In this document: positions 5,954 through 22,702 of the stretch, in pieces
How the letters are laid out: each line of letters opens with the position of its first letter
Numbering within the stretch: the first letter of the stretch is position 1
Translations under genes and position numbers: made by a program
The notes under the pieces: generated by a model
Database searches by the model: none
What the model was told of the DNA's origin: nothing
The model's input: only the letters and a program-made list of their open reading frames with translations
Source of the DNA: a virus
Lineage: Duplodnaviria > Caudoviricetes
Reading direction: 5' to 3' (one strand)
DNA: 26,310 bases
IMG/VR virus record: IMGVR_UViG_3300014775_001835
Span: 1 to 26,310 of that record

Positions 5954-6208
5954 TTACAACTGTCTCAAATTTTCTTGTTGAGCAATATACTTACGACGCT
6001 TTTTAGCTAAACGTCTTGTAACTGCCGGCTTTTCGAATTGCATACGATCTTTCAATGTCTGCAATTTGCCGGAATCTTTCAATTGGCGCTTCCAAGATTT
6101 AATAGCGTAATTGATATTAGATCTATTAAGCTTATCTCGGGTGACCTTAGCTCCACATTCTGCGCCAGGCAAGATCATTTGATGTTTAAGTAACTGTTTC
6201 TGATTCAT
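5954..6208 (-). CDS. rpsU: Phage-encoded 30S ribosomal protein bS21
   Basis: NINYAIKSWKRQLKDSGKLQTLKDRMQFEKPAVTRR matches the bS21 pattern (ALKRFKR...G...LR.R..FEKPS..RR). Small and basic; bS21 beside head genes is known in large phages. Confidence 0.88.
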   Translation of the reverse strand: MNQKQLLKHQMILPGAECGAKVTRDKLNRSNINYAIKSWKRQLKDSGKLQTLKDRMQFEKPAVTRRLAKKRRKYIAQQENLRQL

Positions 6209-6223
6209 ATATTCAATTTTGCT

Positions 6224-6255
6224 CTAATATAAGAACAATATCTTAAAAGATCAAA
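6224..6255 (-). promoter_or_regulatory. Bacteroidota primary-sigma-type promoter upstream of bS21
   Basis: TTTG-N20-TATATTAG, compared with the consensus TTTG-N19-21-TAnnTTTG (one mismatch). Confidence 0.55.
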
Positions 6256-6855
6256 TTATCGTAATCTTTTTGATTTAGTACTAGTCATATGATCATCAAA
6301 CGCAGGGCCGTAATCAGACACGCCAGCGGTATATTGATCTTCATCCAATGCAATTCCAGCACCTCCGTCGCTAATACCCGCAGTATATTCGTCCTCATCT
6401 AATGCAATGCCAGCAGCCCCATCACTTACACCCGCAGTATATTCATCTTCTCTTAATGCTTCGCCAATTTTATAGTATCTATTTAATACAGTTCCCATAT
6501 CATCATATGCAGATTCTAAACGCTGCTGTAAGCCTGACATTTCTTTAGCAGTCTTTTCAAATACTTTATATGCTTCATTCATCTGCTTCATATGTCTAGA
6601 AACCGTAACGTTATCAAACCAATGTTCTGATTCCGATAATGTTAACTTTTCAGCTTGCTCCATAATAGAACCTAAAGTTTTTGTAACTTCACGAAGCGAA
6701 TCCTGACGATATATCATTTCGCCAATTTTATGGAAGTTAGCGACTGTCTTCAAAAACGTGCGCTTTTCTTCGCTCGTCATTTTCTGTTCATCCTCTTCGC
6801 CTAAATATTTTTCATTGAGGATGTGCTTCATTAATTGTTTTTCATACTTAAGCAT
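6256..6855 (-). CDS. Hypothetical helical head-region protein with C-terminal 18-aa repeats
   Basis: The track starts it at 6885, but ATG at 6855 (MLKYEK) has GGAG 8 nt upstream and only an 8-nt overlap with the upstream gene, so it is preferred. Confidence 0.7.
   Translation of the reverse strand: MLKYEKQLMKHILNEKYLGEEDEQKMTSEEKRTFLKTVANFHKIGEMIYRQDSLREVTKTLGSIMEQAEKLTLSESEHWFDNVTVSRHMKQMNEAYKVFEKTAKEMSGLQQRLESAYDDMGTVLNRYYKIGEALREDEYTAGVSDGAAGIALDEDEYTAGISDGGAGIALDEDQYTAGVSDYGPAFDDHMTSTKSKRLR
6314..6450 (-). repeat. 54-bp tandem repeat (~2.5 copies), EDEYTAG[VI]SDG[AG]AGIALD
   Basis: Seen in the translation and in the DNA (cccgcagtatattc recurs at 54-bp spacing). Confidence 0.85.
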
Positions 6856-7138
6856 CGAATGCTCTCCGTTTTTTTGCTTGTTCAAGTAATCGTAGCATGC
6901 CTTCTAAATTAGTTTCAACACTACCACTATATCTTTTAATTACATTTACAGATTGTTCTGCTTTTTTAGCTACTATACCATATACCATTTCATCTTCGGC
7001 AATGGTTTCTAATTGACCGACGAGATCGCGTTGTGCAACTTGTAATGCTTCTATAACACCCTCAATTGCTTCGATATGCATATCATAATTAAATGAAAAG
7101 CTATCATCCTGTTCTTTTAATATAGATTTGAGCTTCAT
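6848..7138 (-). CDS. Hypothetical helical protein
   Basis: 96-aa ORF starting MKLKSILKE; ATGA overlap with the upstream small ORF. Confidence 0.7.
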   Translation of the reverse strand: MKLKSILKEQDDSFSFNYDMHIEAIEGVIEALQVAQRDLVGQLETIAEDEMVYGIVAKKAEQSVNVIKRYSGSVETNLEGMLRLLEQAKKRRAFDA

Positions 7139-7311
7139 GGGTTGTACTTTTCTGACGTCTTGCCTGGCTTAGATATCGGACCATACTTGCTAGCAGCTGT
7201 TTGCAATCCTTTACCATCTTCATATGCAAATGTATCGACAGTAGTGCCGGTGGTTGGCTTACCGTTTTCATTGGTCGGGCCAAGTTGCGATTTCATATCT
7301 TCTAATGGCAT
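7135..7311 (-). CDS. Small hypothetical protein, 58 aa (not in ORF track)
   Basis: MPLEDMKSQLGPTNENGKPTTGTTVDTFAYEDGKGLQTAASKYGPISKPGKTSEKYNP. Preceded by CATATTTATA and AAGGA; its TGA overlaps the next ATG. Confidence 0.7.
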   Translation of the reverse strand: MPLEDMKSQLGPTNENGKPTTGTTVDTFAYEDGKGLQTAASKYGPISKPGKTSEKYNP

Positions 7312-7341: not shown

Positions 7342-7722
7342 TCAACGTTTTCCGCCGTAGTATGCTACAGCATGCCCTTCTTCAATTAACTGCGTATTAA
7401 CATTGATAAGTGTGATGGGTGTATCTGTTGCTACTGGAGACAATGACTCTACATGTATAGTAGCCAATGCCCTGCCAAACTTCCCCAAACCGCTAACCTT
7501 TAACGCACATTTATTATCGTTATACTTTAATATTTCAGTTAGCCGTTCTTTTGCAGCCAATCCACGTTTCTTTTCCTCGAGATCTCTAGTACGTGTTTCC
7601 GGCGTATTAATTCCTTCTAAACGTACACGTATCTTTTTCCACGTATAAAATCCTAAGTCTATTGTACAGTCTATCGTATCGCCATCGACAACACGATCTA
7701 CTATTGCATTATATTCGTACAT
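7342..7722 (-). CDS. Thermonuclease (SNase-like) family protein
   Basis: RVVDGDTID, RVRLEGINTPE, KFGRALA, NTQLIEEGHA; no signal peptide seen. Confidence 0.9.
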   Translation of the reverse strand: MYEYNAIVDRVVDGDTIDCTIDLGFYTWKKIRVRLEGINTPETRTRDLEEKKRGLAAKERLTEILKYNDNKCALKVSGLGKFGRALATIHVESLSPVATDTPITLINVNTQLIEEGHAVAYYGGKR

Positions 7723-8030
7723 TATTCACAATTTTTTTGTCTTAATTCATCGACTAATATTTCAAGATGTTCTATGTCTCTTTCTAAATGATTAAGTCTT
7801 AAATTTTGTTCGGCGTCATCGGGAAGTGAACCCATTTCGCCTCGAGGCCATTTGATTCTAAACTCTGAGTTAAGTTCGATCTCTTGATTATGCCGCATAG
7901 TCTCTATCTCAAGCTGATTGAGTGCAGACATTATAGTAAAATAAAGAGTTACAGCCGCACCTACGCCTACTACAATTTGTAGCAGCCACTTGACATTAAT
8001 GCCAAAATTTGTATTATCATCTAGCTTCAT
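7722..8030 (-). CDS. Single-TM, coiled-coil small membrane protein
   Basis: Hydrophobic WLLQIVVGVGAAVTLYFTIM followed by heptad-like sequence; resembles 12704..12988. Confidence 0.7.
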   Translation of the reverse strand: MKLDDNTNFGINVKWLLQIVVGVGAAVTLYFTIMSALNQLEIETMRHNQEIELNSEFRIKWPRGEMGSLPDDAEQNLRLNHLERDIEHLEILVDELRQKNCE

Positions 8031-8035
8031 ATTAG

Positions 8036-8257
8036 TTACTTTTTAGCAAATTTTTCTAACCCTGCTATTCCAAAACTACCTAGTGTTACAATTACAAATG
8101 AGTTATAAATTAATTCGTTAATAACAAGATCTTTTCCCATCCATCCTGTTATCGTATCTGCTAGCATTACTACTACCATTACCGCAAATGATAAAAATCC
8201 TACAATCGTTTTTTCATTGTAGTCATTTTCGTCTTTAAAAATTTCTTTCCAGCTCAT
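8036..8257 (-). CDS. Two-TM small membrane protein (holin-like topology)
   Basis: Two hydrophobic segments (IVGFLSFAVMVVVMLA; LIYNSFVIVTLGSFGIAGL) and a basic C-terminus KFAKK. Confidence 0.65.
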   Translation of the reverse strand: MSWKEIFKDENDYNEKTIVGFLSFAVMVVVMLADTITGWMGKDLVINELIYNSFVIVTLGSFGIAGLEKFAKK

Positions 8258-8268
8258 ATTTTTTCCTA

Positions 8269-9303
8269 TTAAATTATTCTATAGTTAAAACCAACTGAAA
8301 AATCGTGCCAATTTCTATTCCAGTATTTATGATATTTTCCTTCGGAGAAGATGCCTAATCTTTTGTTTACTTGCCATCCTAAAATAAGACCTCCTGTATA
8401 ATCTAACCATGTATTACCATCGATAAAGTTAGTATATGAATATTCATTTTTTGCACTCACATGAAGTGGCAACACGCTGCCCCAAGTATGAAACCAAAAT
8501 GATTTAGTGTAATGATAGTAATCGTATCCTAATACTAATGAATGGTTCCATTGATTAGGTAGTAACGATCTTTCTTGTTCAACATAATCACTTAATACAT
8601 TAGGAAGTGCTACAGCATTCCAAACAATATTATTATCAGCTACTACATCACCATTAGGGTCAAACCATTCTCCTTCAAAATTAGTAGTATAACCTTGATC
8701 TAAAGCTACATTAGAAAAATCGGCTCCTGCTAATCCTACTAAAGGATCAAACCCGTATGGTTCAGAAAAACGTTGTACTAATCCTGTATTAAGTGAGAAT
8801 TTTTTACCAACATTATATCTGTAACGCTGAGACGCTTCGAAATACTTAAGATCTGCAAACCCGTCCTGTACATATTCTGTTTTTACAATCCAATGATCGT
8901 GTACATATCTTAAAAAATGTTGTTGGTCAACAAAATAATTACCTTGTTGTCTTTTATAATCAACTTCAAATAGATACTCTAAGCCTTCCACGTTGCCGAT
9001 AGTAGCAGCATCCGATACTGATACTTCTGTACCGTTATAAAATACATTTTTTCTGTTTTCGTAATCTAAACGAGCTATTTTTCTAACACCAAAAGCAAAT
9101 GTATAATCAAATGGCGTTGATATAGTTTCTTTATCTAAGATGCCGGTAGACGGATTAATAGAGTATACACTAACATCTGCCAACGAGTTGTTACCAGTAA
9201 CCGCAGTATAAAAAGTAGCAAATTTAAGTTGTTGTTGTATAAACTGTGCTTGTGCTGTTAAAGAACAAGTTACTACTAACAATATAGCTAAGAATTTTTT
9301 CAT
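8269..9303 (-). CDS. Secreted, probable outer-membrane beta-barrel protein
   Basis: Sec signal MKKFLAILLVVTCSLTAQA; many aromatic alternating strands (LVLGYDYYHY, GGLILGWQV, LGIFSEGKY); terminal strand FSVGFNYRII. Confidence 0.7.
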   Translation of the reverse strand: MKKFLAILLVVTCSLTAQAQFIQQQLKFATFYTAVTGNNSLADVSVYSINPSTGILDKETISTPFDYTFAFGVRKIARLDYENRKNVFYNGTEVSVSDAATIGNVEGLEYLFEVDYKRQQGNYFVDQQHFLRYVHDHWIVKTEYVQDGFADLKYFEASQRYRYNVGKKFSLNTGLVQRFSEPYGFDPLVGLAGADFSNVALDQGYTTNFEGEWFDPNGDVVADNNIVWNAVALPNVLSDYVEQERSLLPNQWNHSLVLGYDYYHYTKSFWFHTWGSVLPLHVSAKNEYSYTNFIDGNTWLDYTGGLILGWQVNKRLGIFSEGKYHKYWNRNWHDFSVGFNYRII

Positions 9304-12113
9304 TGTTTGATAATTTTTTTAGTGAATTGAAGATCGTTATGAGTAAGTATCAAGTTATAAATGCCTGCTTCAAATTTACTCATATCAATTTGTGTTACAT
9401 TAGTTTCTTGCAACACGGATTGGCCCGTTGCGTCGTATAATGTAGCACTAACATTTAAGTTACTTGCAATAGTAATATTATCTCTAGTCGGATTTGGAAA
9501 CACAATAATTTGTGTCTCGCCATACTCTTGTACATTTGTTACGGTATTTTCATCACAGTAGTTGTATAATTCCTGGCATCCGGATGCCCATTCATTATTA
9601 CAGCATGACGGGCTAACATCGATAACCCATGCAAAGCATTCGCTGCCTAAATCCAATAAATTATACGTTTCAACTACCGGGTCAATACAATTGGCATATA
9701 CAGTTTCGCAAGTGCCATTATCTGTATTGGCGTCTTCATCATAGTTAGCAGCTTCAGGATCGGTACAGCCGTATATAAATTCTTCGCAGCTAAAGTCTTC
9801 TGTATTAGCCTCGGGGTCATAATTGTATGCGCTAGGGTCCGTACAGCCCTCTATGATAGGTATACAGGTGCCATTATCGACAGTTGCTAGCTCATTGTAG
9901 TTGAATGCGGTAGTATCAGTACATCCATATATTGGCAAATCACATTCAAAGTTATTAACGTTGGCTAATGGATCGAAGTTAAGTGCTAATGGATCCATAC
10001 AACCTTCTACAATAGGCTCACATGAATCATTATCTACGTTAGCTAATTCATTATAATTAAACGCAGTAGGATCTGTACATCCGTATATAGCATCTATACA
10101 TGATCCGTCTTCTACATTTGCGTTAGCATTATAATTTAATGCACTTGCATCAGTACATCCAACTACTATAGGAATACATGCTCCATTATCTACATTTGCT
10201 AATGGATCATAGTTAGTTGAATTAGTTTCAGTACAACCAAATATTGCTAATGTCTGGCAATCGCCGTTATCAAAGTCAGCTTCAAAACCTTGTGTATAGT
10301 ATTCTAAGTATCCGGCTTGGGTACAACCCGGGGTGTAATAACAGCTTCCATCATCAGTATTAGATTCTCCATTATAATTAAATGCAGTTTCGTCAAGGCA
10401 TCCATAAACATATGGTTCGCAAGTATTACCACAGTAAAGATCTACTTCATACTTATACCATCCACTCCCATTAATAAAAGGAATAATGTTAAAGAAAGGT
10501 ACTTCAATCATAACCTCTCCTTCAGAATTAGTTAAGGTAAATCCACATTGTTGAGCTGTAGTAATAGATTGAGGGGTAACAAAGAAATAAACATATGTCG
10601 TTTTAGTTACGTCTAATTCAAGATTAAATGATAATTCATTACCATCTTCAGGACCCATTTGATATAATGGAGAGTTATACCATAATTGGTAAATACCTAA
10701 AGAACTACCTAACCAACCATCTCCCACCCCATCTGTGATAGTTAAAGTAAATTCACATGATTCTATGATATCTTCAGTATTAGCTTCGGGGTTGTAGTTA
10801 AACTGAGTAGGATCCGTACAGCCTATAACTACGGGTGTAACACATGACCCTGCTAAAAAAGTAGTTGCCTCAGGATTATATTCAACATAGTTAGGATCTG
10901 TACAACCAGCTATTACTGAAATTAGACCACATGATGTAGGGGGGGTAAAAGTAGCTGAGGTAATAACGTATCCAAAATTTCCATCTTCGTGTTCATCCAA
11001 AAGAGTCCAAAGTAATTCACCATCACAATCTAAGACTTCAATATTACCATTTACACTACCGCCAAAACATGTACCACATAATCCATCACCATAAGTATCT
11101 TCTATTACCAAATCATATTCACCTCCTGTAGTAACACATACTTCAGTTGATATAGGAACACCAGGAGGAGACCCTGCATAGGTACCTACAGGTGCTGTAG
11201 CATATACTTGATCATTAGGTCCATATAATAACCAGCTTGTTTCGCCACCAAAATTATCAGGTGTTACTACTATTTCGAGTACCGACTCGCCAGGAGCACA
11301 TTCTACGTTTTGTGATATGCAAGAGCCATCATCATAGTTAGCCCAAGGATTCCAGTTAACAGCAGATGGGGCTGAACATCCGGGAATAGCACCACAAGGT
11401 AAACACGATTCCCAACAGTAGTTAGGTAATAGCTGTTCCTCTCCTTCGACTACAGTTAATGTTCTATTAACAAAACCAAAAACATCAAATTGAAAACAAG
11501 AGTTACCATCAATACCAACAGGTAATTCTTGTATATTTGGGTTATTAAAATCAGCAAATTTCCATAAATAATCTCCTTCAGGAATAGGGATTGTTACAAA
11601 CCACTCATCTGCTTCATCGTATTCCATCGGAATAACTTGCCACCCATTCCAGTTACCTAAAACGCCTGGGGTTTCAACTTCGGGAGAAGCATTAGCTAGA
11701 TTAACTCTAAATGTTATATCTGTTGTAGGTAAATCACATGGAGGAGAATTAAAAGTATATTCTGCTGTAGGGGTTGAAAAGTTATAATCTTCAAAAAGAA
11801 TTCCACTACAATTATTTTCAGCAAAAAAGAATCCTTCACCAAATCCACAACAAATTCCATCTCCAAAAGCATCGGATATAGCAAATGTATGAACTCCAGA
11901 ATTTAAAAATATTCTTTGTTCAATTAAAGTGCCGGCAGGTACTCCTTCATAACTTGGGCTAGTTACTATCGTGTCAGAACCTTGTATTATTGCCCAAGAA
12001 GTTTCTGCCGGGTAATTATCGAGTTGAAGAGTGAGGTCTATATAAGTGTTGGTTTGGGTTAACCCTGTAAGACCAATAAGAAATAAAAGGGGAGTTAAAA
12101 AATGTTTCATCAA
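9300..12113 (-). CDS. T9SS type A sorting-domain protein with Cys-rich GCTD repeats and a CBM48/20-like domain
   Basis: N-terminal signal peptide; C-terminal IIVFPNPTRDNITI...LYDATGQ...IDMSKFEAGIYNLIL...TKKIIKQ matches the type A T9SS CTD; 12 GC.D..A.NY...A..D.G.C-like repeats. Confidence 0.88.
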   Translation of the reverse strand: MMKHFLTPLLFLIGLTGLTQTNTYIDLTLQLDNYPAETSWAIIQGSDTIVTSPSYEGVPAGTLIEQRIFLNSGVHTFAISDAFGDGICCGFGEGFFFAENNCSGILFEDYNFSTPTAEYTFNSPPCDLPTTDITFRVNLANASPEVETPGVLGNWNGWQVIPMEYDEADEWFVTIPIPEGDYLWKFADFNNPNIQELPVGIDGNSCFQFDVFGFVNRTLTVVEGEEQLLPNYCWESCLPCGAIPGCSAPSAVNWNPWANYDDGSCISQNVECAPGESVLEIVVTPDNFGGETSWLLYGPNDQVYATAPVGTYAGSPPGVPISTEVCVTTGGEYDLVIEDTYGDGLCGTCFGGSVNGNIEVLDCDGELLWTLLDEHEDGNFGYVITSATFTPPTSCGLISVIAGCTDPNYVEYNPEATTFLAGSCVTPVVIGCTDPTQFNYNPEANTEDIIESCEFTLTITDGVGDGWLGSSLGIYQLWYNSPLYQMGPEDGNELSFNLELDVTKTTYVYFFVTPQSITTAQQCGFTLTNSEGEVMIEVPFFNIIPFINGSGWYKYEVDLYCGNTCEPYVYGCLDETAFNYNGESNTDDGSCYYTPGCTQAGYLEYYTQGFEADFDNGDCQTLAIFGCTETNSTNYDPLANVDNGACIPIVVGCTDASALNYNANANVEDGSCIDAIYGCTDPTAFNYNELANVDNDSCEPIVEGCMDPLALNFDPLANVNNFECDLPIYGCTDTTAFNYNELATVDNGTCIPIIEGCTDPSAYNYDPEANTEDFSCEEFIYGCTDPEAANYDEDANTDNGTCETVYANCIDPVVETYNLLDLGSECFAWVIDVSPSCCNNEWASGCQELYNYCDENTVTNVQEYGETQIIVFPNPTRDNITIASNLNVSATLYDATGQSVLQETNVTQIDMSKFEAGIYNLILTHNDLQFTKKIIKQ
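9708..10403 (-). repeat. Nine tandem ~26-aa GCTD...NY...DGSC repeats
   Basis: Counted in the translation from GCLDETAFNYN to GCTDPEAANYDEDANTDNGTC; three more copies lie further N-terminal. Confidence 0.9.
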
Positions 12114-12481
12114 AACTTACTCATTATAATATTATCAATAGATTCTTGCACATCATCTTTTGTCGATTCCATTTGCATCATAATGTTAGCCTGGAATCTA
12201 GCCACTTCTTCGCCATCGTCAAATATTAATATTGTAGGAACAACTACTATTTTATAATCTTGAGGCAAACGAGGATTAGTTGTAATATCGACGGTTGTGG
12301 TAGTACAATCAGTCAATTCATCTAACCATGATACTTCATTTACGGCGTTAAATTTAGCGGTAAACTGGACAACACAAATTCCGTCATTACATAATTGCAT
12401 TGTTTCTTCTGATAAAGCGTTATTGTTATTAATATCAGCACTAGCAAATAAAAATAACAGTATTGAACTAAGGTATTTCAT
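12110..12481 (-). CDS. Exported thioredoxin-fold protein lacking CxxC
   Basis: N-terminal hydrophobic stretch; VVQFTAKFN at the usual active-site position; YKIVVVPTILIFDDGEEVARFQ matches the Trx C-terminal half with its cis-Pro. Confidence 0.75.
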   Translation of the reverse strand: MKYLSSILLFLFASADINNNNALSEETMQLCNDGICVVQFTAKFNAVNEVSWLDELTDCTTTTVDITTNPRLPQDYKIVVVPTILIFDDGEEVARFQANIMMQMESTKDDVQESIDNIIMSKF

Positions 12482-12482
12482 G

Positions 12483-12704
12483 TTAAGAACCTATTTGGTT
12501 TCTTGCTAATAGAAGCTTTATTTCTGCTAAATCTTCTTGTAAATCTTTTAACATGTCTTTAACTTCGTCTTTCGTTTGTTCTAAAGTATAAACACGATTT
12601 TTAATCTTAGAAAGATCATTGTTAAATTTAACATATACGCCTACTATTCCGGCAACAATTAAAAGTATCTCATACATGGTGGGGTTTTCTACAAATACTT
12701 CCAT
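12483..12704 (-). CDS. Single-TM, coiled-coil small membrane protein
   Basis: ILLIVAGIVGVYV followed by heptad repeats; TAATG coupling to the upstream gene. Confidence 0.7.
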   Translation of the reverse strand: MEVFVENPTMYEILLIVAGIVGVYVKFNNDLSKIKNRVYTLEQTKDEVKDMLKDLQEDLAEIKLLLARNQIGS

Positions 12705-12988
12705 TAGTCTAACTTATCAATTTTTTCTTCAAGACGTATCAATTGGTCTTTGATTTCACTAACATCCTCTTGCGTAGTCATGATTGTCTGACGGACCAAT
12801 TGGTCTTTCATATCAAACTCCATTCTAGTTATTTCTGGATCTGGAGGTAGTGGTAATTCTTTTGCTTCTGCAATATCTGCCTGAAGCGTAAACCACATGC
12901 CGATTATAGTAGCAAGCGCCACTCCTATACCGGCTAAGGTTTTAATACTAACCGAAAAGCTAGTATCTTCATTTATTTCTTTTGGCAT
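12704..12988 (-). CDS. Single-TM, coiled-coil small membrane protein
   Basis: TLAGIGVALATIIGMWFTL followed by coiled coil; TAATG coupling to the protease gene. Confidence 0.7.
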   Translation of the reverse strand: MPKEINEDTSFSVSIKTLAGIGVALATIIGMWFTLQADIAEAKELPLPPDPEITRMEFDMKDQLVRQTIMTTQEDVSEIKDQLIRLEEKIDKLD

Positions 12989-13593
12989 TAGAACTCCCTG
13001 ATAATGTCCGTGATGATACGGTCAATATTATTGTATTTGTTGGTTACAACTTTATTAACTGATTCATTCACAGGCGACAGGAAAGCTCCATGTGTAGACG
13101 GATTTGATACAAAATCAAATGCAATTAATTCAAAATCGGGCTGAACCTCTAATGTGTTCTCCCCCTCCTTCATAACTTCTTTAACGGAGCCCATCCCCCG
13201 TGAAGAAATGCCAAGCTTAATGCCCGACTTAAATAATTCTTTTAATATATTACCAGAAGGAGTAGAAAGTACTTCAACAGTACCTACCAGGTCATCGCCC
13301 TTCCAGGCCATTTCTAAAACGTTATGTGATACATTGTTCAAGTTAACAACGCTAGAATCTGGGTGATCTAGCTCGCCCAATGCACGTCGTTCCGTAATAA
13401 ATGATTGCGAATACTTTTGTGCTTCGCGCATTAATACTTCTTTAGGGTAAATTCTGCCGTTTTGGTTTTTAGCTTCGGCACGTTGTAATACGCCTTGAAC
13501 AACTAAACGTCCGTCATTCTTAGCTAACGATTCGTTAATTTGTTGCGGTGTTACCTCAAATAATGTATAATCTACTAATAATGATTTAGACAT
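12988..13593 (-). CDS. Prohead core protease (T4 gp21-like)
   Basis: NQNGRIYP, ALGELDHP, TPSGNIL, LGISSRGMGS, DFVSNPST. Confidence 0.95.
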   Translation of the reverse strand: MSKSLLVDYTLFEVTPQQINESLAKNDGRLVVQGVLQRAEAKNQNGRIYPKEVLMREAQKYSQSFITERRALGELDHPDSSVVNLNNVSHNVLEMAWKGDDLVGTVEVLSTPSGNILKELFKSGIKLGISSRGMGSVKEVMKEGENTLEVQPDFELIAFDFVSNPSTHGAFLSPVNESVNKVVTNKYNNIDRIITDIIREF

Positions 13594-20419: not shown

Positions 20420-22702
20420 TCAGGTAAACTTCTGTGTTTTGTCAAGGCTAAAGTTTGCCCTACTAAATTCTATACGATCGACAAATTTAACGCCGGAGCC
20501 GATATGATCTACGGCAACGTACCCTTCTGGCGCAGTAGCGCGCAAACCACCAGACCCGTCATCTATAAAGTGCTTTGTGTTGTATACTGCGTTATTGTAT
20601 TTTTTGACAAAAATTAGTTTTGCGTCTGATATTAATCTAGATAGAGTAAATAGATTAACAATATCAGCCCGGCGTGACATTATCATTTGCATTTTAGCTT
20701 CGCCTTCCTGCTTAGCACGTTCTTTACCTTTAAGAGATTTCAATCCCTCTATTCTTTTGTCAATACGTGCTTGCATCCAAGCTTGAAACTTATTGAACGA
20801 TAAAGCCGGATTTTTAACAAACTCTCCGGTTTTTATTTCTGAGTTAAGGTATATGTTTAATTCTGCACTTGGAAGATCTTGATAATTAATTTTAAGCGCA
20901 TCTGCTCGTTTAATTAGTGAAGCAACTTCTTTACCTTCTGCAGCTGTCAAAGTAACATAGCCAGTATTGTCATCAAAAAACGCATCATCAAACCAAACAT
21001 TAGGAGTACGCTTTAGTTTACTAACATCGGCGCCGAAAGATGCTCCGGAAGTCAATGACTCATATGTAGTATGAAAAACAATGCCCATTTTAGCTCTGCT
21101 TATATCTTTACCTAAATCCGAATCTACTTCCGCGGCATATGTAATTGTATTTGGACGAAATGCTATGTGCTGAACTCCGTCAATTTGACGTGTTCTTTTC
21201 ATTGAATCGTCAAACATAAAGTCACCTTGCAAAATATTCTTAATACCTAATGCCGGCAGATACTTTAATGCTATTGTTAGTTTATCAGCCAATCCGGGAG
21301 CATGTCCATGGTTAGCAGCAATATCATCATTTGTATAGTTAATCTTAGGTTCTTTATTAAAGATTGACTTTGTCCCTACAAAGAACTTACCGTTATCCGG
21401 ATTGATGCCGGCAAATATTGCAGGCGCGCCGTCCCATTTAACTGAAGTATTTACTTTAGCATTTGAATTGCCTTTGAGATTTTTAAGCAGTTCTAGTAAA
21501 AAGAATCTAGCTTGTTTATATCCCTCCTCCCCCTGAGTAAGAACTAGTTCTTCTAAATGTGTTAAGTGAGTATTGGCTTTTGCCTCGCCTAAGATTTCTT
21601 CTGTAATAGATGACCACCATTCGGTAGATAATATCTGCTCTTGAACTAACGGTTCGGGACTGCCTGGTTCTGATTTACTACTATCGATAGCATCTTCCGC
21701 GCCCAGGAAATTTAAAAATTTATATCCTACCTGTTGTGCAACTCGCTCGATATATTTTGCCCATTCTCGATAGCCAGGCTTACCTCGTAATGCATTAGTA
21801 TAGTTTGTACCGGCATTTTTTGCGCCGGCGTCGCCTACGGGAAAATATGACACTGACATAGGCGGACCGTCCGGAAATTCTGTATCGTGAACTTCTATAG
21901 GATTGTCTTTTATAATGTAATTGAGTACTGTAAATCCTAACCTCTGCGCCATGGCGTTATTTTTAGCTCTGTATGTAGCTTGGTTGCCGTAAAAATATCT
22001 AGGGCCATCATCTACCACAGACTTACCTAACGGTAAATTACTACTAGCTTCGACTAAAAATCGTTCTATGGATTCATTGACTACTTGCGAAAATTTTTTA
22101 CGTAAAAGGTTGTACACCTTCGGGTCAAAGAATCCCATGATACTACGGAAATCGTCCGGAGTTGCTGCCGCAAGTGCTTGACGTAAAACCGTTCCGGACA
22201 TCTCCCCAAATCCGGGAACATCCAAAGATACATGAGGTGCCACATATAAGTACCCATGTTTTGTATACGGCTGTAAATTGTTTTTGTTTTTATCATAATA
22301 TTGAAAATATCCCGGTTCGCCGTTTTTCTTTAATCCTACACGAAATCTAGGATCTTCCATCATATCTTTTTTACCTACGGCGAATAATACTGCGGTTGTT
22401 TCTGGATCGTACTTGCTAGTTATTTCAACGGATTGGTATGGATTCTTAACTTGAACTACGTTAGTAATTCCATGTTGTCTCATTACCATTTGCTTTTCTT
22501 TAAAGCTTAATGGCGATTTAGGTAAACTAACTTTATCAGATGTTGCAATGTATGTGTTCGACTTTCCAAATTTACTTGCAAGTTTTTTGTAAACTTCTGC
22601 ATGGTGTTGACCCATTGGCTGAAATCTGCCTGGATAAATTACAATAACATTTTTAATATTACTTTCTGATAATATCTGTTCTGCTAACCAATCACCTAAC
22701 AT
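20420..22702 (-). CDS. Fusion: N-terminal HIGH-superfamily (cytidylyltransferase-like) domain, middle domain, and C-terminal DUF6267-like ligase-fold domain
   Basis: IYPGRFQPMGQHH...PLSFKEK...SGTVLR in the N-terminus; NTHLTHLEEL, SVKWDGAPA, FFVGTKS, LQGD, FRPNTITY, GIVFHT, PEGYV and VKFVDR.EFSRANF in the C-terminus. Confidence 0.75.
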   Translation of the reverse strand: MLGDWLAEQILSESNIKNVIVIYPGRFQPMGQHHAEVYKKLASKFGKSNTYIATSDKVSLPKSPLSFKEKQMVMRQHGITNVVQVKNPYQSVEITSKYDPETTAVLFAVGKKDMMEDPRFRVGLKKNGEPGYFQYYDKNKNNLQPYTKHGYLYVAPHVSLDVPGFGEMSGTVLRQALAAATPDDFRSIMGFFDPKVYNLLRKKFSQVVNESIERFLVEASSNLPLGKSVVDDGPRYFYGNQATYRAKNNAMAQRLGFTVLNYIIKDNPIEVHDTEFPDGPPMSVSYFPVGDAGAKNAGTNYTNALRGKPGYREWAKYIERVAQQVGYKFLNFLGAEDAIDSSKSEPGSPEPLVQEQILSTEWWSSITEEILGEAKANTHLTHLEELVLTQGEEGYKQARFFLLELLKNLKGNSNAKVNTSVKWDGAPAIFAGINPDNGKFFVGTKSIFNKEPKINYTNDDIAANHGHAPGLADKLTIALKYLPALGIKNILQGDFMFDDSMKRTRQIDGVQHIAFRPNTITYAAEVDSDLGKDISRAKMGIVFHTTYESLTSGASFGADVSKLKRTPNVWFDDAFFDDNTGYVTLTAAEGKEVASLIKRADALKINYQDLPSAELNIYLNSEIKTGEFVKNPALSFNKFQAWMQARIDKRIEGLKSLKGKERAKQEGEAKMQMIMSRRADIVNLFTLSRLISDAKLIFVKKYNNAVYNTKHFIDDGSGGLRATAPEGYVAVDHIGSGVKFVDRIEFSRANFSLDKTQKFT

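Follow-up and report, generated by a model that had tools for sequence, protein, structure and literature searches.

An inserted phage module with a predicted outer-membrane barrel, a thioredoxin-fold protein and a type IX secretion cargo, and its possible link to lysis

Here, we describe an envelope module of tailed phages, the hosts of which are likely flavobacteria, with a core of three genes, A, C, and E, and, in some lineages, a predicted type IX secretion system (T9SS) cargo. The window, i.e., the whole stretch of virus DNA analyzed here (26,310 nt), carries this module within a block of eight genes beside the prohead protease gene. New in this work are the inserted block, cargo that follows the clade of the predicted barrel protein E, and a predicted hairpin whose length separates cargo-linked from cargo-free barrels. 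The proposal of a phage-encoded envelope cassette, made in a sequence-only reading of the window, held in the form of an inserted, co-inherited module with a true type A cargo and a barrel. Its composition lies outside known families and its function is predicted. We tentatively prefer the possibility that A, C, and E bridge the membranes as a spanin substitute, with an acidic surface element provided in cis or in trans. This reading is based on gene content, conservation, lysis adjacency, insertion site, the C-terminal sorting domain (CTD) of the cargo D, and the match between clade and cargo; topology and barrel fold are predicted.

An inserted block among head genes

The head block of the window lies on the minus strand and comprises TerL, portal, prohead protease, bS21, an ORF without a family match that is called scaffold-like for its position and composition, Gp23, and PhoH. 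From the protease onward, eight minus-strand ORFs, labeled A to H (Table 1), are separated by -1, -1, +1, -4, -4, +11, +5, and -1 nt; the tight coupling claimed at first sight was thus recovered in ORFs, coordinates, and gaps (-4 to +11 nt). Membrane or exported character was again predicted, with one transmembrane (TM) segment by hydropathy each in A, B, and G, two in F, and signal-peptide-like N termini, judged by eye, in C, D, and E, of which E alone exceeded the hydropathy cut-off. A promoter and terminator scan gave chance-level results (35 versus 35.6 and 4 versus 4.2). Among the sequencing runs listed, none was an RNA holder and all shares were small.

Table 1. Features of the eight-gene block and its boundaries
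Feature	Position	Strand	Evidence or remark
Resident genes, three small ORFs and bS21	5954..7311	-	PF01165; right boundary, outside the module
H, staphylococcal-nuclease-fold protein (SNase)	7342..7722	-	PF00565, phrog_452
G, TM-coil paralogue of A	7722..8030	-	phrog_20984; hhalign A versus G, probability 97%
F, 2-TM protein, candidate holin or antiholin, lysis-cassette associated	8036..8257	-	
E, core; predicted 12-strand outer-membrane beta-barrel, extracellular subdomain, short-hairpin form	8269..9303	-	
D, clade-specific predicted T9SS cargo	9300..12113	-	in 68/69 clade-0 loci
D, predicted type A T9SS C-terminal sorting domain, residues 871-937	9303..9503	-	TIGR04183, PF18962
C, core; exported thioredoxin-fold protein without CxxC	12110..12481	-	PF00085, 26.5 bits (weak)
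B, accessory TM-coiled coil, weakly XhlA/holin-like	12483..12704	-	PF10779, E value 0.0016 (below cut-off)
A, core; 94 aa, TM 17-35, proline hinge, C-terminal coiled coil predicted periplasmic	12704..12988	-	
Prohead protease (S77)	12988..13593	-	PF03420, E value 2.8e-28, phrog_207; left boundary, outside the module

Among the best 80 of 588 protease relatives, 42 distinct sequences had a readable protease-to-scaffold span, and one of these (contig L001) carries the module, as does contig L017, which lies outside the 42. The default arrangement is protease, small ORFs, bS21, and scaffold, with bS21 in 37/42 spans and the ORF at window positions 6256-6885 (w6256), which ends in three EDEYTAG-type repeats, in 42/42. 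With 1/42 spans holding it, the block reads as an insertion between the protease and the resident genes, in line with the insertion between protease and scaffold genes proposed earlier. A chimeric assembly was ruled out because two independent contigs, L001 and L017, repeat both flanking junctions, protease to A and H to downstream. The adjacency of gp21 and gp22, which the sequence-only reading had invoked, does not apply in this lineage even without the block, because bS21 and three small resident ORFs lie between protease and scaffold as well.

Some further features were noted. D of L001 (L001:1703-4834) is broken into ORFs of 839 and 89 aa, which reflects either a frameshift or misassembly of the repeats. 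The bS21 gene (5954-6208) shares its strand with the head genes, and upstream of the terminase a cytidyltransferase-like domain is fused to DUF6267 in a 760-aa protein (20420-22702).

Core genes, barrel clades, and cargo

Loci were sampled around E, C, and distant barrels (21; the best 80 of 85, 582, 533, 276, and 590; 6; and 23), and all counts refer to these best-hit samples, which are not a census. The counting set consisted of the 41 loci, window included, that had 5 kb on both sides, out of 91 distinct near barrels. Within this distance, E was accompanied by C in 40 loci, D in 40, A in 38, F in 18, H in 16, and B and G in one each, that sole locus being the window itself. Conversely, loci anchored on C (n = 38) held E in 38 and A and D in 36 each. 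These genes stay together despite permutation of their order (DEAC in 22 loci, ACDE in 13, other in 6; n = 41), and the module was found among head genes, RNR and Que genes, baseplate genes, and DnaK. The per-gene counts exclude the eight-gene system originally proposed: co-occurrence extended to A, C, D, and E and broke down for B and G (1/41) and also for F (18/41) and H (16/41).

A pooled set of 245 distinct barrels fell into six clades and two singletons. When the count was restricted to loci with 4 kb of sequence on each side, nearly all had A and C, i.e., 66 and 69 of the 69 loci of clade 0, 31 and 31 of 31 in clade 1, 25 and 24 of 28 in clade 2, and both in 12/12, 3/3, and 5/5 loci of clades 3, 4, and 5, respectively; the core therefore consists of A, C, and E. 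A system built around D is not supported, given three barrel clades that keep the core and have no cargo within 4 kb of E (clade 1, 0/31; clade 4, 0/3; clade 5, 0/5). Several cargo-free loci (L299, L320, L322, L324, and L325) have A and C duplicated on both flanks of the barrel (A-C-E-A-C).

The core was almost confined to phages in these searches: E and A have viral clusters as their nearest Atlas neighbors, and the expectation that the unit is absent from bacterial chromosomes was borne out in the cellular genomes searched. A bacterial operon was considered and rejected: a GTDB pattern scan yielded six MAG contigs, of which the inspected ones carry phage-type genes, one (L181, 3.8 kb) being too short to judge. 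Searches of 401 genomes, some partly incomplete, from the order to which G003 belongs (its contig title reads Flavobacteriales) matched E in 2, C in 3, and A in 5 genomes, and found the unit only on the phage-like G003 contig. A distant barrel (E value, 1e-41) stands alone amid a ribosomal L25-like gene and other housekeeping genes in the Flavobacteriales chromosome G064:C35 (L275:9379-10593), from which it follows that the barrel can persist without A and C. Contig G064:C25 holds a broken barrel remnant among secreted-type genes, and the short contig G299:C183 an A fragment and C followed by an aminopeptidase-like gene.

A consists of a single N-terminal TM segment and a heptad-like C-terminal half in a putative periplasmic orientation. 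In 67 aligned sequences, C has an invariant proline, P82, within VVVPT and the consensus F-N-A-x-F-N at the CxxC position, and does not qualify as a redox-active thioredoxin; a conserved lipobox cysteine was absent from alignments of its homologues. B matched the holin family phrog_1296 (E value, 0.00037). A homologue of F, 52.8% identical, immediately precedes the endolysin and holin genes of Flavobacterium phage immuto_2-6A, and A, C, and E were undetected in the 16-kb stretch holding it. G has an 82% identical counterpart at this site in the module-free relative L479, and H, a frequent companion, also occurs at that site in the module-free L474 and L479.

The AF2 model of E (pLDDT 75.4) has 12 barrel strands, with the C-terminal strand last, and its top fold matches are porins and autotransporter barrels, with VIA matches to EstA (Z 15.5; rmsd 3.8; 196 aligned) and KdgM (Z 14.9; rmsd 3.2; 163 aligned). 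Pfam and NCBIfam profile searches of E gave no match.

By HMM, D is a type A T9SS cargo: its CTD, claimed in the sequence-only reading, scored above both curated cut-offs (TIGR04183, 45.7 bits versus 23; PF18962, 43.9 bits versus 27), and PF18962 also matched in 5/5 D homologues scanned. The start codon of the 937-aa ORF is probably the ATG at 12110, which gives 936 aa, because homologues begin with MK. Most of the 63 homologues listed have, judged by eye, a basic, then hydrophobic, then AQ-type N terminus. D contains 47 cysteines, 12 Cys-rich GCTD-type repeats, and 15% D+E versus 1% K+R. Residues 20-570 were modeled as a string of beta-sandwiches (pLDDT 85), one of which is CBM48/20 glycogen-binding-like, the sole informative Foldseek match from a multidomain model; a search for a catalytic domain in D found none. 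The D-type repeats had matches in 76 of 301 Flavobacteriales genomes, most of them 1-2 Mb in size, so D is probably a host-type surface protein and the host likely such a bacterium. Synechococcus phage S-CAM3 likewise has GCTD-type repeats (L188:4572-7504), in proteins with a virion-structural annotation. A virion role of D, suggested by these matches, was rejected, since the putative signal peptide and the CTD argue for export.

The same phages encode further T9SS-type cargo, namely type B CHU_C proteins with GCTD repeats and M43 peptidases (L003:15198-20356, L002:11451-14774, L018:15212-17299, and L051:15120-17222). L116 and L118 have two tandem cargo genes, each with repeats and CTD, upstream of the barrel.

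The type of putative cargo follows the barrel clade. The one clade-0 locus lacking D has a D-like ORF without a CTD match. All 28 clade-2 loci encode an acidic exported protein of 148-310 aa that contains Cys and is weakly LDLa-like, and 9 of the 12 clade-3 loci a 169-182 aa protein homologous to the N-terminal domain of D. The last 45 aa of these small cargo proteins contain sequence motifs B, D, and E in 40/40 and 11/11 cases versus 2/2810 other ORFs, by a pattern written after seeing the sequences. Nine small cargo proteins gave no TIGR04183 or PF18962 match, and hhalign of their tails to the CTD of D yielded 13-19%, with one control at 17%. Because the curated HMMs miss these tails and the profile comparison is near its control, a short T9SS tag on the clade-2 and clade-3 cargo is probable rather than demonstrated. 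That standard HMMs miss such tails suggests that phage use of the host T9SS is likely undercounted.

Across 115 sequences, a surface hairpin at residues 205-213 of the window's barrel is 8-18 aa long in the three clades with cargo and 20-26 aa in the three without, where the median number of acidic residues is 5-7; with six clades, such a pattern would arise by chance once in 20 if these were independent. Hairpin length separated the clades, unlike an EF-hand-like motif, which was rejected as a cargo-free marker (13/126, 20/51, 0/41, 0/15, 4/5, and 0/5). A tree of 43 barrels places clade 0 with clade 4, which is cargo-free (100/100), and clade 5, likewise cargo-free, with clades 2 and 3 (94.6/97). 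The cargo-linked clades are thus not one group, implying at least two changes. A and C of clade 4 resemble those of the window as closely as do those of clade 0 (69% and 56% identical), yet its E is only 33% identical and cargo is absent, so E and cargo behave as a linked pair.

These observations bear on the notion that D is a host-derived passenger in a late operon with no functional link to A, C, and E. The frequency of D-type repeats in hosts and the existence of the trio without any cargo would fit it; retention of D in 68/69 clade-0 loci despite permuted gene order and unrelated phage surroundings, fixation of other cargo types in two other clades, and covariation of hairpin length make it quite improbable.

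Lysis genes beside the core and possible functions

The strongest contextual signal, missed in the first reading, is the link to lysis genes. ORFs for holin or endolysin were found at 0-1.5 kb from the core in 139/404 flanks and in 13/372, 4/310, and 1/243 in the successive further bins, a contrast inflated by lysis profiles that were seeded from module neighbors. The neighboring lysis families are several and unrelated, including M15, two amidases, phrog_3000/33083, GTA-type holin, and holin_4_1. For clades 0 to 5, respectively, the loci with a lysis gene no farther than 4 kb from E numbered 33/69, 31/31, 16/28, 11/12, 2/3, and 5/5. In cargo-free clade 1, A, C, and a lysis gene are present in all 31 loci; for clade 0, to which the window belongs, the count rises to 46/69 when F is included. 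No endolysin was recognized among the 29 ORFs of the window, the record of which is a fragment; the linkage holds at the level of the family and is not seen as such in the window.

Lysis-gene proximity might only reflect that both are late envelope genes. A remodeling of the cell surface apart from lysis, in which cargo is anchored to or displayed by the barrel so as to exclude superinfecting phages, mask receptors, or mediate adhesion, would agree with the true type A CTD of D, its resemblance to host surface proteins (repeats in 76/301 Flavobacteriales genomes), its position directly upstream of E in 88/118 cases, and the further T9SS cargo of these phages; such roles were proposed for Cryophage cargo by Bellas et al. 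(PMC7468147). Considering that in three clades the trio persists near endolysin and holin genes and without cargo within 4 kb, and that display needs no inner-membrane coiled coil, we regard this as fairly unlikely.

The insertion site itself provides a further connection to lysis. The relatives L474/L475 and L479 (protease 88% and 85% identical) are devoid of the module and have, at the same site, two overlapping genes, for a TM-coil protein and for a lipobox coiled-coil protein, followed by holin or G and then H; L518 has a holin there. Two-component spanins of the lambda Rz/Rz1 type combine an inner-membrane periplasmic coiled coil with an outer-membrane lipoprotein, and the pair at this site presumably represents that architecture. 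Its Rz-like spanin matches are weak and not significant (E values, 0.016-0.17). No such pair was found in the 460 loci pooled before the protease scan, which says little, the pair being rare. After the holin, L474 (4882-7365) and L475 (11909-14392) encode a PAS-like membrane protein, a receiver-like protein, and a TM coiled coil, assigned by eye, a signalling-like set beside lysis genes.

Lysis adjacency, the spanin-like pair at the same site, and the F homologue in the lysis cassette of an isolated phage together argue for the spanin-substitute reading. It is tempting to speculate that the module would be expressed late, together with the head genes, and that A, with its paralogue G, would anchor in the inner membrane, C would serve as a redox-dead periplasmic adaptor, and BAM would insert E into the outer membrane, while the host T9SS would export D as a surface acidic partner of the barrel. 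Once holin and endolysin have acted, the bridge might collapse or fuse the membranes, so that lysis would clear away the outer membrane. An acidic and probably Ca2+-binding element at the cell's exterior, i.e., cargo in trans or the long hairpin of the barrel in cis, might tune lysis, for instance by stripping LPS-cross-linking cations or by gating the barrel.

Several observations count against this reading: the lack of a lipoprotein, the unconvincing alignment of A with the i-spanin-like protein of the relatives (probability 21%), the non-significant spanin matches of the replacing pair, lysis genes in only 33/69 clade-0 loci, the window without a recognized endolysin, the lone chromosomal barrel, a complete 157-kb relative that gave no barrel match in a search in which two positive controls matched, and the large cost of a ~1000-aa cargo for a lysis accessory. 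The more far-reaching claim of a new class of lysis machine in Bacteroidota phages, a barrel-based trans-envelope bridge that would replace spanins and be controlled by an outside acidic calcium-binding element, either built into the barrel or exchangeable and T9SS-delivered, appears somewhat doubtful; if it holds, a host secretion system would become part of phage lysis.

The same lysis-gene adjacency would suit a surface-sensing lysis timer, in which cargo or hairpin senses an outside cue (particles, polysaccharide, a superinfecting phage, or Ca2+) and signals via E and C to A or F, so that lysis is delayed or triggered. In T4 lysis inhibition, RI binds the holin T. The single TM segment and periplasmic tail of A, the soluble exported partner C, the CBM48/20-like domain in D, and the weakly holin-like B are compatible with such a timer. 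Profile searches revealed no similarity to T, RI, or a signalling family, and a timer leaves the spanin-like pair at the same site in relatives unexplained; we consider it unlikely.

Relation to known systems

PorP and PorV barrels have 14 strands, and PorP/SprF-family barrels are encoded beside T9SS cargo. The module shares with these the adjoining barrel and cargo genes; however, E has 12 modeled strands, pairs with type A cargo, and persists without cargo. The missing PorP/SprF and PorV in the fold lists for E exclude nothing. Like the short CTDs of Prevotella intermedia (PMC11969387), the clade-2 and clade-3 cargo end in 40-50 aa tails with the same motif B, D, E pattern; here, the tails are predicted from sequence and belong to phage proteins, and D of the window has a long CTD.

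Phage T9SS cargo alone has already been published: Bellas et al. (2020, PMC7468147) described Cryophage genes with type A CTDs, variable between phages, as presumed users of the host T9SS. That cargo comprises an endoglucanase, a GH39, and a PA14 protein, in contrast to D with no catalytic domain found, and the account of these genes mentions no barrel, thioredoxin, membrane anchor, or lysis link. The bS21-encoding phages of Chen et al. (2022, PMC9723584), with predicted Bacteroidetes hosts and reported late expression of the head block, possess the same block of TerL, portal, protease, bS21, scaffold, and MCP; in the clades presented there, bS21 is on the reverse strand, whereas in the window it is on the head-gene strand, and the word "secretion" is absent from the main text. 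Searches of the open-access literature, judged by titles and abstract starts, gave no description of the module, whose genes could be listed in annotation supplements on Cryophage or bS21 phages. The passages on lysis in flavobacterial phages and Crassvirales (PMC8776804 and PMC10136315) mention only holins, antiholins, endolysins, and spanins. The module is common in IMG/VR, with ~1500 matching stretches estimated from one motif scan, yet tblastn of E, C, and A had no match in 50,697 deposited phage records.

The function of two-component spanins of the Rz/Rz1 type is covered in PMC12819732, according to which, citing Kongari 2018, 13% of tailed phages of Gram-negative hosts have no identifiable spanins; the route of such phages through the outer membrane is named there as an open question. 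The natural exchange for a spanin-like pair at one site and the cargo-free versions are ready-made test constructs. In common with Rz/Rz1, the module has an inner-membrane protein with a predicted periplasmic coiled coil (A), an outer-membrane partner, and adjacent holin and endolysin genes. It differs in that the outer partner is a predicted 12-strand barrel instead of a lipoprotein, in the additional thioredoxin-fold protein and optional T9SS cargo, and in that A has no spanin profile match. An o-spanin equivalent is lacking because C has no conserved lipobox, and a small lipobox ORF within 4 kb of E was found in only 2/69 clade-0 loci. Since the lipoprotein feature fails, the module is not a member of the spanins, though it may work like one.
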